Assembly (NCBI GenBank): GCA_051294375.1
Contig: CM119263.1
Coordinates: 26,191,400-26,203,677 of the forward strand
Direction: 5' to 3'
DNA length: 12,278 nt
Origin: Paraspadella gotoi
Taxonomy: Eukaryota > Animalia > Chaetognatha
The notes under the pieces were generated by a model that saw nothing but the letters and a program-made list of their open reading frames with translations, did no database searches and was not told the DNA's origin. This document shows, in pieces, positions 3,553-12,278 of the stretch. Each line of letters opens with the position of its first letter. Within the stretch, counting starts at the first letter, position 1. The position numbers were made by a program, and so were the translations under genes.

Positions 3553-4380
3553 TCTTTTTTTTGCATAATTTATCAAAATTCAATGTTCTGACTTGAAATA
3601 AGTTAATGCCCGACAAGATTGAGGGGGCGGACCGATGGACCGACAAAGTGGATTATAGAGTCGGGATCATGTCATTGATGAGCACATAACTAAGAAAGTA
3701 GGCAAGCGAGACTACTGGGAGTTGAAAAATTAAAAAAACGTCAGCGATTTTTTTACCAGGGTGCAAAATCTGAAGTCGTTTTATCAGATAATTTAGCCAC
3801 AGTATTTGAGCATTTCATTTAACTCCCACTTGAAATCCGTGTAAAAGCTTCAGAACCATAGACCTGTCATTCATCGTATGTTTTAATTTATTATTTAGGA
3901 ATATGTGGCAATCCAGTTATCCAGCTATCCCTCCGGATGTCCAGTGTAATTTTTTTCATTTTTAATCTTCTTCAAGTATTGTAAAATTTCAGAAGAAAAA
4001 AGATGTCTTTTTTACATTCAGCTTTGCGGTAGAGTACTTCATTTAAAAAAATTATTGCTCTTACACAGATGGCCTAATTTTAATAAAAATTTATGCCAAA
4101 CTTATTATCTTTCAATAAACTTTAAATCACTTTTAAATTTTTTTTAAAAATTGAATTTTATAGGGTGATTTTTAAAGTCTGAAATAAAGTGGTACCTTTT
4201 TTTTTGCACAGGACAGTAATATAACAAAAATTTTTTTTATTATTTTCATTTTTATAGTAATTGAATATTCACTCTTTTTTATTGAAGTTATATAGTGAAG
4301 AAACAGTAATGATTGTTATGTGTTAGTGACAGTCTGGTGGTCCTATCACCACAGATGGATTAAAGCTATTTCTTTCGCAG

Positions 4381-4437
4381 TGGCTCAGTGGACTAATGCA
4401 CCATCCCAATGTGTGTCCCTGGTTCGAGCCCTGAGGT
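4381..4437 (+). promoter_or_regulatory. tRNA-like Pol III internal promoter in B LTR1
   Basis: A box TGGCTCAGTGG at 4381-4391 and B box GGTTCGAGCCC at 4421-4431. The acceptor-like stem GCCTCAG/CTGAGGT is visible in the LTR2 copy (4816-4867). Confidence 0.8.
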
Positions 4438-4439
4438 TG

Positions 4440-4520
4440 TCATGTAGAAAGTGGGACGGACCGGGTAACCCGCCTGTAGGCAACGGCCTGCTGCCAGATC
4501 CAAAGCTCTGCACTACATGA
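4440..4520 (+). ncRNA. Predicted twister ribozyme, type-P5 permutation (B LTR1)
   Basis: P5 TCATGTAG/CTACATGA; GA-CGGA; U^AA-CCC-GC; P3 hairpin; P4 CAGA/TCTG with loop TCCAAAGC. One T1 mismatch. Confidence 0.75.
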
Positions 4521-4592
4521 ACATGCTGTTTCGCTGTCGCCACGAGGTGACACCGCTGCGGGTGTGGCGCCCTGTAAAACCAGCCTCTTCAA

Positions 4593-4606
4593 TGGTGAGG
4601 CCGACG
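4593..4606 (+). promoter_or_regulatory. Primer-binding site, tRNA-Trp-like (element B)
   Basis: TGGTGAGGCCGACG lies 1 nt after the LTR end. The complement of the metazoan tRNA-Trp 3' end is TGGTGACCCCGACG. Confidence 0.75.
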
Positions 4607-4869
4607 CAAACCGGGCCTGATAATACTCCTCTGCCCTTGATGTGGTTTGAGCTACGCAGCTGCCACTCAACGCATAGGCCACCAGAATGAAGAGAGGTTC
4701 AGCGGAGAGACATGCGCTTCATCCCCTGCTTCGTACTCTCATATGTGAGAGTCCTGGGGGCAGCTGTCTGGTGGTCCTATCACCACAGATAGATTAAAGC
4801 TATTTCTTTCGCAGCGCCTCAGTGGCTCAGTGGACTAATGCACTATCCCAATGTGCGTCCCTGAGGTTG

Positions 4870-4950
4870 TCATGTAGAAAGTGGGATGGACCGGGTAACC
4901 CGCCTGTAGGCAAGGGCCTGCTGCCAGATCCAAAGCTCTGGACTACATGA
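4870..4950 (+). ncRNA. Predicted twister ribozyme, type-P5 (B LTR2, best-preserved copy)
   Basis: T1 TGGA/TCCA is perfect, T2 GC/GC, P4 CCAGA/TCTGG, P5 8 bp, conserved GA and UAA. Predicted cut at 4896^4897. Confidence 0.82.
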
Positions 4951-5040
4951 ACATGCTGTTTCGCTGTCGCCACGAGGTGACACCGCTGCGGGTGTGGCGC
5001 TCTGTAAAACCAGCCTCTTCAACAGAACCGTTCAATATAA

Positions 5041-5114
5041 GCAGTCTCTAAGCTTCAGATCAAGCTGTAACACAGAGTTACAGGCGGGTTAAGCGCCCCG
5101 TCCCTCTTAACTGC
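5041..5114 (-). ncRNA. Predicted twister ribozyme, type-P5 (A1 3' LTR)
   Basis: Minus strand reads GCAGTT AAGAGG GA CGGG GCGCT TAA CCC GC CTGTAAC-TCTGT-GTTACAG CTTGA TCTGAAGC TTAGA GACTGC. T1 is retained through G-U pairs. Confidence 0.75.
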
Positions 5115-5117
5115 AAG

Positions 5118-5189
5118 ACGACCACCGGGCTAGAACCTCGGACCTTTGGGTTCGGAGGCGAATGACTTGCCTCCGGCAGCAATGGCCGC
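5118..5189 (-). promoter_or_regulatory. 72-nt tRNA-derived module (degenerate A/B boxes) in family A LTR; paralogues at 6122-6193, 8361-8432, 8771-8842
   Basis: Acceptor-like stem GCGGCCA/TGGTCGY, A-box-like TGGTGCCGGAGG, B-box-like GGTTCTAGCC, and anticodon-like loop CTCCCAA in three of the four copies. Confidence 0.7.
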
Positions 5190-5359
5190 TGATGAACAGT
5201 TGGTGGATTTTAGTCCACCATACATCCCCCCAGGGAGAAGTCTGTTGCGTCTCGTCAGTAAATTGTTGTTGGTGGAATATTCGTCACCAAGTTGAGGCAT
5301 GTCGCTTGATGTGTTGATGGCAGAAATTGCATCGCCAGGTTGAGGTATGTCGCCTTAAA

Positions 5360-5372
5360 GTCGGGCTCACCA
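5360..5372 (-). promoter_or_regulatory. Primer-binding site, tRNA-Trp-like (A1; identical at 8630-8642 in A2)
   Basis: TGGTGAGCCCGAC lies 1 nt after the LTR end CTCTTCA; 12/13 match to the tRNA-Trp 3' complement. Confidence 0.8.
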
Positions 5373-5390
5373 ATGAAGAGACAGTAATTA

Positions 5391-6003
5391 TTAAGGCGTA
5401 GTGAAAGTTACATATGGAAATTCTAAAAGTCAATTATGAACAACATACCATCAGTGAACATTAATTTGTAAAAAAAATTAATTTTATGTCTTTTAATTTT
5501 TGCAGTAGGCTATATTTATATATAGTACTATCCTTATAAAATCGAAAAAATTCAAAATAGGCTTTTCTTAATTTTGATTGCAGATTTGAATTCCTCGTCA
5601 AAAGTTGATAAAAGAAAATATAAATCATTTTTAAAATTGTTTCATTAAGTGGGTTAAAAATTAAAAAAACTATATTTATTATATTAAAAGTTAATTTTCA
5701 GCTTAAAATATAGCTTTTTCTAATTTTTGACCCACTTAATGAAGGAATTTTTCAAAAAGAGTTATATTTCTTTTTATCAACTTTTTATGACGAATCAAAA
5801 TCTGCAAAAAAATCTTAGAAAAAACTGTTTTGAAATTTTAACATTTATTGGTTTAGAACTAGTATAAATATGGCTTACTGCGTAAATTGTAAAATTTATT
5901 CTAAATTTTTTTATTACATAAATGTTCATTAATATAATGTTGTTCGTTCCTCACTTTTAGAATTTTAATTAAAATTAAATTTAGAAATTTTACTACGCTT
6001 TAA
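5391..6003. mobile_element. 613-bp foldback MITE inserted in A1 5' LTR
   Basis: Termini TTAAGGCGTAGTGAAA / TTTTACTACGCTTTAA. The arms pair along their whole length (e.g. TTCATTAAGTGGGTTAAAAATT with AATTTTTGACCCACTTAATGAA). TAATTA is duplicated at 5385-5390 and 6004-6009. Confidence 0.85.
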
Positions 6004-6044
6004 TAATTATTGTTATGTATTAATGACAGAACCGTTCAATATAA

Positions 6045-6118
6045 GCAGTCCCTGAGCTTCGGATCAGGCTGTAACACCGAGTTACAGCCGGGTTAAGTGC
6101 CCTGTCCCTCTTAACTGC
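6045..6118 (-). ncRNA. Twister ribozyme, mutated copy (A1 5' LTR)
   Basis: Same fold with L4 TCCGAAGC, but T2 GC is changed to GG and T1 has an A.C mismatch. Confidence 0.65.
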
Positions 6119-7553
6119 TAGGCGACCACCGGGCTAAAACCCCGGATCTTTGGGTTGGGAGGCAAATGACTTGCCTCCGGCACCAATGGCCGCTGATTAA
6201 CGGTTGGTGGATTTTAGTCCACCATAATAGTAATGTTCTAAAATTTTTTTTTATTTAGTAAAAACAATTACGTGCCTATCTTGTGACTACCCATATGAAG
6301 GTGCATCTCCCAGTTTTATTGTTCACGAAAAAACCAATGGTTTCAACAATTTAAACTCTACTTCTAATACCAAGATGGAAAAAAAATTGTCGCATTTTAA
6401 TGTAAGAATCGAAAAATAAAAATTAGATATCAAGAAACTTTGGCCTCTTGTGATTTATATGAGCTGTATCTTATTTATGTACGACAAAAAATACAAGAGT
6501 TCCATGCAAAAGAAAATGAGTTGTCCAAAAAAATGCTTCCTTCTTTTTATCTTTTTCATATCTACACTTTTCATTTATATTAATTTCGGTTCTTTTTTAT
6601 TACTTTTTGAGTTAAACCGTTACTATTATCCCTGCCTTTTCTCTGTCTCATGTCAAATGGTTATTGCATCATCTCTATTAGGATAGATTTGTCAAAAAAG
6701 TACGATATTAAAAATAAATTGATGCTGTAGATGCTCCAGAATATTTTTATTTACGTCTGGATGTATTATCAGAACGAAGTATCAAACAAGTCTAAAAAAA
6801 AAAAATCAAAGATTTTGTTGAACGGAAAGACAATGCATCATCACATTATACAGTAACAACTCAAGCCAAAAACCATTTTTTGCCCAAAATCTGATAAAAT
6901 ATTAATAATAATATGAGTAGTCCTCTTGATCAAAAAGAGGTAAAAACAGAGGCAACCTCTTTTGGAAGTTATAAAGTCCAGACGACCATAACCCAGATGC
7001 TCTTTTTGTCTCCCAAATCAGAAAAATATTGACTTTCGGCTCACTGTCAATTTTTTGCGATCATTCAGCGTTTGGACGGGACTCTTATAAGTGTTTGTGT
7101 CTAATAATAATTGATATTTTTATTGATTATTAGTAGTATTCTGATATAGATATTTCAATTGCTCGCCGGAAAGAGCAGATGGAATATCTATATGCTTTGA
7201 TTTTTTTATTAAGGTACCATTAAATATCAACAAGACGATTCCCAAGGCATAAGAAACATTTAATATTAACTTTCTGGCGCCGCCGCCCCCCGGGTTTGAG
7301 GGTGGTTTCTGTCCCGACGTCTTCTCCCTCTCCGCTAGGTCGAGGAGGGGTTCTACAAAGTAATTGTATGCAATAAATAATTTTATGCTGTTGAGAAATG
7401 AAATGTTTATTCAGGCCTAGGGAGGTCATATTACATTTTAAAACCTATTTAACGGCCAAAAAATTTATTTGACAATGAAATTAACCGACTTTTCCAAACC
7501 GCGACAATTTTTTTTCCATCATGTTGTGTACTCTTAACATCGATCATATGTGC

Positions 7554-8329: not shown

Positions 8330-8875
8330 TGAAGAGACAGTAATTATTGTTATTGTTAAGGCGACCACTGGGCAAGAAGCCCGAACCTTCAGGTTGGGAG
8401 GCAAATGACTTGCCTCCAGCATCAATGGCCGCTGATGAACAGACAGTTGGTGGATTTTAGTCCACCATACATTCCCCCCTCCTGTAGGGAGAAGTCTGTT
8501 GCGTCTCTTCAGTGAATTGTTGTTGGAAAGTGGAAAGTTGAGGCATGTCGCCTGATGTGTTGGTGGCGGAAAGTGCATCGCCAGGTTGAGGCATTTCGCC
8601 AGAAAGTGTTGTTACTGTTGTGTTCGGAAGTCGGGCTCACCAATGAAGAGACAGTAATTATTGTTGTGTTAGTGACAGAACCGTTCAATATAAGCAGTCC
8701 CTGAGCTTCGAAGCAGGCTGTAACGCGGTGTTACAGGCGGGTTAAGCGTCCTGTCCCTCATAACTGCTCGGTAACCACCGGGCAGGAACCCCGGACCTTT
8801 GGGTTGGGAGGCAAATGACTTGCCTCCGGCACCAATGGCCGCTGATGAACGGTTGGTGGATTTTAGTCCACCATA
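8330..8875 (-). mobile_element. Family A mini-LTR element (copy A2), intronic
   Basis: TSD ATGT at 8326-8329 and 8876-8879. 5' LTR 8644-8875 (232 bp), PBS 8630-8642, PPT AGGAGGGGGGAA 8472-8483. The 3' LTR 8330-8469 has the ribozyme segment deleted. Confidence 0.9.
8694..8767 (-). ncRNA. Twister ribozyme, mutated copy (A2 5' LTR)
   Basis: P5, P3, UAA-CCC-GC and AAGC are intact. The P4 closing pair and T1 (TTCG/CAGG) are degraded. Confidence 0.65.
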
Positions 8876-8889
8876 ATGTCTTCAGCATC

Positions 8890-9333
8890 AACAAGTTTGA
8901 GCAAACAATGTCGGATCTGCCTACGATAATTAAGTGGTAATAAGCTAACTTGGTCAACTTGCATAATTTAATCAACTTGCATAATTTGGTCAACTGACAT
9001 AATTTGGTTAACTGACATAATTTGGTCTACTGACATAATTTGGTCAACTGACATAATTTGGTCAACTGACATAATTTGATCAATTAAGATAATTTGGTCA
9101 ACCGGCATAATTTGGTCAACTGGCATAATTTTATCAACTGGCCTAATTTGGTCAACTGGCATAATTTGGTCAACAGGCATAGTTTGGTCAACTTGCAGAA
9201 CTTGATCAACTTGCAGAATTTGGTCAACTGGCATAATTTGGTCATCTTTAAGAATTAGGTCAACTGGCATATTTTTGTCAATTGGCATAATTTGGTCAAT
9301 CAATCAATCATTCAATCATTCAATCATTCAATA

Positions 9334-11245: not shown

Positions 11246-12102
11246 AGATAGGAAACGTCAAAAAAATGTTTTAAAATTTTGTACAGGGTAGTGAATCAAA
11301 ACTTAGAATAGTATTATCATCACATTTTATAGTCCAAAAGTTATCGAATGTCTTTTTATAATATAAGCGCCGGTAAAAAGACGCTGTCATTTGCAAACCA
11401 GTGGTTATTTCATTGATTTTAAAAATTAATTGAGTAGAAAATATTAAAGTCATTTATGTGTTCAAATTTTATATTGATCAGTTAAGATATGCCCTGACAA
11501 TGAGTGGAGAAAGTTGGCTTTTAAAATCGGGTTTCACTTTCCAACTCACTGTTTTTAAATTCTTTTTTTTTCAACTTTTAGCACTTTTTTAAACAAAGTA
11601 TTTATTAAGATATTAACAATATTAATATCCACAAAAGCTATTAAAAAATGAAGAGAATGATATACTTACGAAAGATCTAACATAAAAAGTAAGCTGCACA
11701 GCCTTGGTTTAATTAAGAGAGTCAAAAGTGAATTATTTAAAATTTTAAATCTTTTTTTAAAATATATGACCTGTTTAAATTATTATGAATTAAATTATTA
11801 TTATTTATATAACTATCATGAAAGAGCATGACAAAAAAAGATTTAAGATAGCCAATCACAATTTGATAAAAATCTTAAATTTACCCTCCAGCTATTGATT
11901 TTTGGAAAGATGTTTTGTTTTTAAGTATCCTAATTAAATTACAGCTGGGCCGGTTAAACTTTATACTACAGTATTTGTAAGTATGTCATTCTCTTTAGAT
12001 TTGAAAGGGCTCTCCGAAGATAATAATATTAAGAATATTTCATTTCAATTTTTTTCAGAAAACTTATTATGTGATAATCCTTTCTTTTCGTTGTAAATGA
12101 TT

Positions 12103-12203
12103 TAGAGAAAAAACAAAGTTTTATTAGTTTCAACGAATTTGTTTTTATTGAAAAACAATAAAAACAAATTCGTTGAAACTAATAAAACTTTGTTTTTTCT
12201 CTA
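12103..12203. repeat. Perfect 48-bp inverted repeat with 5-nt loop
   Basis: 12103-12150 is the exact reverse complement of 12156-12203; the loop is AAAAA. Confidence 0.95.
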
Positions 12204-12278
12204 GAAAACTTATTGAAAATAAGATAAAAAATCGAATCTAAAAAAATCTTAAAAGCAATAGGGATCGAGCCGCTTTCG

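Follow-up and report, generated by a model that had tools for sequence, protein, structure and literature searches.

Two families of miniature long terminal repeat (LTR) retrotransposons in the window, the whole 12,278-nt stretch of Paraspadella gotoi DNA analysed here, carry in their LTRs a twister-like motif that lacks the P1 hairpin. Judged from its letters and pairing, the motif has the genuine strand order of a type-P5 twister, with the catalytic G and A, both pseudoknots, P3, P4 and P5, and by their sequence features its hosts are Helenus-like miniature LTR retrotransposons (TRIMs). On balance, we favour a model in which these folds cleave the transcript that contains them, and the freed unit is circularised and reverse-transcribed by a helper retrotransposon. 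The LTR-retrotransposon setting, an A-U pair closing P4, a competing register of P2 and a palindromic linker are points beyond those raised in the earlier note on this DNA.

Five copies of the motif are present in the window, two in family B (U-1 at 4896 and 4466) and three in family A (U-1 at 5091, 6095 and 8744):

4870..4950, plus strand: family B motif of the 3' LTR, the best preserved of the copies, with U^A at 4896^4897
4870-4877/4943-4950, 4924-4928/4937-4941 and 4904-4923, plus strand: its stems P5, P4 and P3
4881-4884, 4885-4886, 4887-4889 and 4890-4895, plus strand: its core, namely P2', GA, T1' and the linker (central CCGG)
4899-4901, 4902-4903 and 4929-4936, plus strand: its P2, T2 and L4, downstream of the cut
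5040..5115, minus strand: family A motif, copy A1, with U^A at 5091^5090 and a decayed P4
5114-5110/5045-5041, 5064-5060/5051-5047 and 5083-5065, minus strand: its stems P5, P4 and P3
5106-5103, 5102-5101, 5100-5098 and 5097-5092, minus strand: its core, namely P2', GA, T1' and the linker (central GCGC)
5085-5084 and 5059-5052, minus strand: its T2 and L4, downstream of the cut
4440..4520, plus strand: family B motif of the 5' LTR, U-1 at 4466, with one T1 pair and one P4 pair broken
6044..6119, minus strand: family A motif, copy A2, U-1 at 6095, with a perfect P4
8693..8769, minus strand: family A motif, copy A3, U-1 at 8744, whose breaks lie in T1, the closing pair of P4 and the palindrome of the linker

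Each copy runs in the order P5, 3 nt, G(A/U)GG, GA, T1', 6 nt, UAA and CCC, followed by GC, P3, P4, an 8-nt loop, P4', 1 nt and P5', which in all copies is the strand order of the Rfam type-P5 twister consensus minus the P1 hairpin. The conserved twister features, UAA, GA, L4 and a strand order with its ends in P5, are thus present. In the 4896 copy, standard pairs account for 8/8 positions in P5, 5/5 in P4, 3/3 in T1, 2/2 in T2 and 7/8 in P3, the exception being one U.U, while the 5091 copy has decayed to one mismatch and two wobbles in P4 and one wobble in T1. T1 (3 bp) and T2 (GC/GC) can pair in these two copies and are broken in the other three; overall, one to three core pairs are broken in four of the five copies (all but 4896), and in the 6095 copy these are one T1 pair and one T2 pair, with the linker palindrome also lost. 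The motifs are very probably derived from a twister fold, and the ribozyme is probably active in master copies of the elements.

The earlier note had placed a plus-strand motif at 4896 and a minus-strand motif at 5091, had proposed cuts at 4896^4897 and 5091^5090, and had read a type-P5 twister; both motifs lie where it put them, both cuts are U^A positions, and strand order and core pairing agree with that topology. Its T1 of four pairs (UCCG/CGGG and UCCA/UGGA) is one pair too long against the 3 bp given in the twister literature (PMC5408937), and P1, which it described as reduced to a 5-nt linker, is indeed absent, with the linker measuring 6 nt because T1 has three pairs. The letters that it quoted for P4 and T1 of family A do not come from the 5091 copy whose coordinates it used; its P4 letters belong to the 6095 copy. 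P5, given as GCAG/CTGC against GTAG/CTAC, is longer (5-7 bp in family A and 8 bp in family B), and the junction-equivalent register is off by one base, so that the P5 covariation it drew from these letters depends on the alignment.

Covariation between the families, which the note put in its heading, is not significant: 40 of 500 shuffles reach the score of the five copies over the 18 unambiguous pairs (P5 and upper P3, where covariation depends on alignment register, being excluded). Two-sided changes occur in only 2 of these 18 pairs, and 90% of cells pair compared with 21-47% when the strands are slid. Families A and B differ on both sides at 9/27 pairs (five in P5, two in P3 and one each in P4 and T1), a count in which two families amount to one contrast. 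The inter-family covariation is therefore suggestive only.

A chance resemblance to twister in a GC-rich repeat is very improbable. No twister match came out of Rfam scans, whether of the window or of three small stretches, even at E 10, and the RF02684 gathering score was not reached, in line with the earlier suggestion that standard models may miss the motif; plain folding z-scores, from -1.4 to -2.5, were similar on the opposite strand. Against these points stand three controls. A relaxed type-P5 descriptor, which finds two of the five copies (4896 and 5091), matched 2/1500 shuffles of the window, 0/8000 shuffles of the GC-rich region 4291-5400 and 0/42 outside loci. With the core letters held fixed, the observed pair total was reached by 0/300,000 shuffles for the 4896 copy and 58/300,000 for the 5091 copy, in a test that is post hoc, the structure having been derived from the same sequences. 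Among 42 outside loci with the same core letters, eight of which represent one element, none had a P4 of at least 4 bp or a P5 of at least 6 bp.

Pattern scans for relatives covered viral (9 and 3 loci), metagenome (16) and prokaryote genome (17) collections; all matches lacked P4 or P5, and no second host for the motif emerged from these scans. A recurring mobile-element stretch of viral contigs (L001-L003 and L005-L009, at about 301-352) matches the core letters, has no P4 and by this test is not a twister. Read contigs from four runs show that the family is very large, read depth not being taken as copy number. Over 5040-5118, a listing of 40 of the 140 rows has eight positions at which most of the depth departs from copy A1, and all six of those that lie in stems give standard pairs. 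Invisible to Rfam as the motif is, such ribozymes are probably under-counted in repeat-rich genomes.

The elements that carry the motif are laid out as follows:

4333..5021, plus strand: complete family B element, with 5' LTR 4333-4591, internal part 4592-4764 and 3' LTR 4765-5021
4593..4606, plus strand: primer-binding-site-like tract of family B, one base past the LTR-ending CA
4756..4763, plus strand: G-rich, weakly polypurine-tract-like stretch of family B, before the inner LTR start
4381..4430, plus strand: tRNA-like head of the family B 5' LTR, with Pol III box A at 4381-4391 and box B at 4421-4430
4296..6226, minus strand: family A element A1/A2, in pieces, with 5' LTR 6226-6004 plus 5390-5374 and 3' LTR 5224-5022 plus 4332-4296
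5372-5360, minus strand: primer site of A1/A2, with the internal part continuing to 5225
5117..5189, minus strand: family A tRNA-like head, directly 5' of the ribozyme, with box B at 5137-5128
8330..8875, minus strand: second family A element (A3), with 5' LTR 8875-8644, internal part 8643-8472 and primer site 8642-8630

Family B measures 689 bp and A3 546 bp, and neither the elements nor the AT-rich, repeat-laden window contain a credible open reading frame or gene, respectively. The LTRs of the family B element are identical at 240/247 aligned bases, and those of families A and B align at 146/220 positions. All three elements are bounded by exact 4-bp target duplications: ACAG at 4329-4332 and 5022-5025 for B, CTAT at 6230-6227 and 4295-4292 for A1/A2, and ACAT at 8879-8876 and 8329-8326 for A3. 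Element B sits in a family A LTR in the opposite orientation, and reads joining 4328 to 5022 show the A sequence uninterrupted; A1/A2 accordingly has its 3' LTR split by element B and its 5' LTR split by a fold-back insertion. The elements share a common start and a CA end, and many different flanks join at 5222 (141, 109, 12 and 29 contigs in X1, X2, X5 and X9). In both families the LTR ends in CTCTTCA, with a primer-site-like tract following inside the element, and just before each inner LTR lies a short G-rich tract. Against the Gypsy-32 tRNA-Trp primer site of the Helenus supplement, which is an insect site, comparison by eye gives agreement at 12/14 letters for the family B tract and at 12/13 for the A3 site.

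The motif occurs in both LTRs of B and of A1/A2 and is missing from one LTR of A3, in whose 3' LTR the entire ribozyme is deleted right behind the tRNA-like head (8357-8358). Box A is retained in the B 3' LTR (4823-4833) and box B is gone in a 12-nt deletion; the family A head has a degenerate box A and scores only weakly against the Rfam tRNA model (13.2 bits, E 9.5), and ARAGORN made no tRNA call on it. The ribozyme-bearing tail after the tRNA-like head extends for 120-150 nt without a T run, and sense-strand runs of four T are absent from B, A3 and the A1 part and number one in A2.

LTRs usually begin with TG and end with CA. The inner LTR starts here (4765, 5224 and 8471) have TG, and the outer starts (4333, 6226 and 8875) read TA or TC, at the same place where the read flanks diverge, which points to a non-canonical LTR end or to end processing of an unusual kind. 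At the LTR starts of both families (4335-4351, 5201-5220 and the remaining ones), some 30 nt upstream of the tRNA-like head, there is also a short hairpin whose first letters are TGGTGG, perhaps an integrase, promoter or packaging signal. In view of the primer site and the 4-bp duplications, a Helitron reading of the terminal hairpin was set aside, as was identification of the elements as tandem SINEs or non-LTR retrozymes. Self-priming by the tRNA-like end of the LTR was also rejected, because by eye the 3' end of neither head complements its own primer site.

Published animal retrozymes are tandem, non-LTR and tied to Penelope-like elements, which raises the alternative that the elements here are non-LTR retrozymes or SINE-like derivatives of Penelope-like elements (e.g. 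Naiad) with LTR look-alikes. This is improbable: Penelope-like elements have no primer site or polypurine tract and make longer duplications, whereas here exact 4-bp duplications in 3/3 elements are combined with fixed ends, a CA end and a tRNA-Trp-like primer site. The ribozyme module itself could still derive from a Penelope-like element.

Other repeats surround these elements. The insertion at 5391-6003 in the family A LTR is rich in AT and folds back on itself, with 73% self-complementarity across some 630 bp; its ends are TTAA-like, and TAATTA appears to be duplicated. An 18-bp unit forms arrays at 25-336, 1788-2711 and 8950-9299 beside TCAA, TTAA and GGAC microsatellites, in both orientations, and adjoin shared blocks of 100-300 bp; we take them to resemble non-autonomous elements of the Helentron/DINE type. 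Long, near-perfect AT-rich hairpins at 12094-12212 (57-nt arms) and 1467-1600, with weak microRNA-family matches below cut-off, are probably MITE-like.

The observed layout has an LTR on either side of the internal part, 4-bp duplications, a tract resembling a primer site, and a tRNA-like head that immediately precedes the motif. It accommodates the following route, which we hold, partly by analogy, to be somewhat better than an even prospect. Pol III would start at the tRNA-like head of the 5' LTR and transcribe through both LTRs, and cuts at U^A in each LTR would free a unit, which for family B would span the cut-to-cut distance of 430 nt and for family A about 400 nt. Such a unit would lack the terminal repeat needed for normal strand transfer. 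In plant LTR retrozymes, according to the available text, a circularised unit lets reverse transcription from the primer site run round (PMC4918200); as the double cut here would likewise leave no terminal repeat, we infer circularisation. The P5 permutation suits this route because the ends of the unit carry the two halves of one ribozyme, and it would keep those ends together, favouring ligation into a circle; in the predicted ensemble of the B stretch from cut to cut, P5 pairs the two ends with each other. With a tRNA-Trp-like molecule as primer, a Gypsy-type enzyme could then copy the circle more than once round, restoring both LTRs, and integrase would insert the product. No helper element was found. 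In a weaker step of the model, the palindromic linker may stand in for P1 through pairing between the two LTR copies, so that the precursor would be cut and a single-copy circle left intact.

How far the motif departs from the twister norm was judged against phage contigs. The comparison set, which is biased by the fixed T1, L4 and P4 core patterns used in the search, comprised 142 loci, reduced to 131 distinct motifs and then to 113 well-formed ones; every one of the five parses with a linker of 3-12 nt is among the 18 of 131 that were excluded for poor P2 pairing. A phage scan for short-linker type-P5 twisters returned seven loci. The linker is 6 nt here, compared with 14-35 nt in 113/113 phage motifs and, by eye, 14-23 nt in five bacterial Rfam matches. 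P2 is 3 nt long in 68 of the 113, 4 nt in 44 and 5 nt in one, and 19 of 20 fully paired 3-bp P2 motifs tested exceed the Rfam cut-off. Based on this set, the absence of P1 is the true oddity and a 3-nt P2 is common. The shortness of P2, which the earlier note had singled out, is thus ordinary, and what remains unusual is that it forms two pairs with a third that is mismatched or needs a bulge. In the phage contigs L129-L191, 3-bp P2 type-P5 twisters outnumber the 4-bp consensus form (68 vs 44), often with several per contig.

The available portion of PMC5408937 reports that P1 is dispensable for activity in type-P1 twister constructs, a P1-less mini-twister cleaving at a near wild-type rate, that P2 length is suggested to be critical, and that the G-C pair closing P4 is essentially invariant in twister structures. 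In both families here, this closing pair is A-U where G-C is expected. Imperfections of P1 and P2 are tolerated among type-P1 twisters, according to the accessible parts of PMC11662667 and PMC5113685. By analogy with the type-P1 constructs, in which P1 can be dispensed with, loss of P1 would lower membership in RF02684 and not the working resemblance. With no P1, no G-C closing pair and no model match, we do not file the motif under RF02684.

Under the energy model, the twister register of P2 does not exceed a probability of 0.007 in any of the five copies, and the comparator medians are 0.84 and 0.98. A competing register, 2-7 kcal/mol more stable and preferred also in the dimer, occupies the catalytic G together with the bases of T2; it is, within the folding model, the main result against activity. 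That model ignores pseudoknots, whose stacking alone is worth about 9-10 kcal/mol before loop costs.

The competing register, the A-U closing pair and the mismatched or bulged P2 are what would be expected if the motif were an inactive or vestigial twister from another retroelement, kept for structure or packaging in an otherwise ordinary Pol III TRIM. Decayed copies, a 3' LTR without the motif, and the fact that a double LTR cut would take away the repeat needed by ordinary LTR replication point the same way. However, the catalytic letters, L4 and both pseudoknots have been kept across families whose LTRs align at only 146/220 positions, and T1, P4 and P3 have changed on both sides, which makes a vestigial motif rather unlikely.

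The centre of the linker is palindromic in both families, GCGC in A1 and CCGG in B, and the palindrome is lost in two of the three A copies. The change between the two linkers is a swap on both sides, under which the palindrome is preserved, and each could form a hairpin on its own only round a 2-nt loop. For self-pairing, the intact linkers rank in the top 1.1-1.3% of all hexamers and only in the top 5% at the same GC content. In the ensemble of the unaltered two-LTR B stretch, P5 is swapped between copies with probability 0.92-0.95, compared with 0.04 in cis, and the linker duplex forms with probability 0.21. For A1 and B, the swapped dimer with its linker duplex gains 10-12 kcal/mol over a pair of monomers, and in the decayed A2 and A3 the linker gives the swapped dimer no help. 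Swapping of P5 is generic, being favoured wherever identical arms occur in tandem, and co-transcriptional folding would favour the cis form first. In the available parts of PMC7229834 and PMC6765202, axolotl hammerheads with one pair and a palindromic tetraloop cap cleave efficiently only as dimers. From this modelling we suggest, tentatively, that a dimer may be needed for cleavage. The complete design, a non-plant LTR retrozyme with a Pol III head and a twister whose P1 is replaced by a palindrome and which cleaves only as a strand-swapped LTR dimer, is more doubtful still. It would mean that only full-length precursors are cut, the circle being pre-assembled and left uncut, and would make this the first dimeric twister from nature, a case of convergence with the dimeric hammerheads.

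Alternatively, the ribozyme may be active as a monomer, like the engineered mini-twister, and the palindrome incidental; the near wild-type rate of that construct (PMC5408937, as far as its text is available) favours this, as does a palindrome that after GC matching is only a roughly 5% event per family, and the circle route would still be possible. On the other hand, the mini-twister does not probe the type-P5 situation, in which a 6-nt linker must span from T1' to the scissile U; all of the 113 natural comparators have a hairpin linker of at least 14 nt; and the two-sided A/B swap preserves the palindrome. A monomer of this kind is possible, if on the unlikely side.

Most genomic twisters have no known job, and the LTR setting offers one, namely production of an LTR element's circular intermediate. 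If the model is correct, LTR retrozymes would not be limited to plants or hammerheads, and the design of a Pol III TRIM could be combined with that of a retrozyme. A dimer-gated twister, if real, would add a new mode for the class and a simple coincidence switch for RNA engineering. In the literature covered, which took in a minority of the subscription papers, we found no twister in an LTR element and no natural dimeric or P1-less type-P5 twister. The retroelement twisters described in the available text of PMC8501958 and PMC7761336 belong to RTE-type non-LTR elements, and the accessible parts of PMC10085705, PMC5680766 and PMC13725137 contain nothing closer.

With the type-P5 twister (RF02684), the motif shares the order P2'-GA-T1'-[P1]-UAA-P2-GC-P4-L4, an 8-nt L4, a 3-bp T1, a GC/GC T2 and a 3-nt P2 strand, as in 68/113 phage motifs. 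It differs in having no P1 hairpin (6 versus 14-35 nt), a mismatched or bulged third P2 pair, a 5-bp P4 closed by A-U, a long P3 and a strong P5, and in lying below any Rfam threshold. Among retroelement twisters, the T-variants of Perere-3 in S. mansoni, as far as they are described in the available text of PMC8501958, likewise have a weak P1 and the same P3 base, with, by eye, the same U.U pair as in family B. Unlike the motif here, they are type-P1, lie at the 5' end of an autonomous non-LTR element, have a 4-bp P2 and make one cut.

As TRIMs, the elements resemble Helenus and TRIMp3 (PMC10886601, in the parts available) in being shorter than 1 kb, with a box A/box B head in the LTR and a primer site matching a tRNA 3' end, and in having the 4-bp duplications of animal Helenus. 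They show the tested Helenus features except the outer TG, with clear boxes A and B in family B, and with a clear box B and a degenerate box A in family A. In the Helenus LTRs covered, however, the head lies near the LTR end and is usually followed by a T run, whereas here 120-150 nt and a ribozyme follow, with no T run. The available text of PMC10886601 does not mention twister, and motif searches of its supplement, where line breaks may hide matches, found no twister loop in a Helenus LTR.

The dimer-cleaving type I hammerheads of axolotl and newt repeats and of Penelope-like elements have two copies per transcript and a cut-site helix shrunk and capped by a palindrome, there one pair and a tetraloop, according to the accessible parts of PMC7229834 and PMC6765202. 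They belong to another ribozyme class and to non-LTR elements, and their dimer cleavage is demonstrated, whereas here it is predicted.

The closest overall design is that of the plant LTR retrozymes (PMC4918200, as far as available): a non-coding LTR element with a self-cleaving motif, here a predicted one, in each LTR, a primer site, a polypurine tract, a 4-bp duplication and a cut-to-cut RNA without a terminal repeat. In place of a type III hammerhead and a tRNA-Met primer site, the elements here have a twister and a tRNA-Trp-like site, together with a Pol III tRNA-derived head in the LTR and a smaller unit; circles are made by the plant elements and only predicted for these. As Rfam found no hammerhead in the window, we do not file the elements under plant retrozymes. 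In print, we found this LTR retrozyme-like design only for plant elements with a different ribozyme, and the best working likeness for the system in P. gotoi would be, by analogy, a type-P5 twister within an LTR retrozyme.
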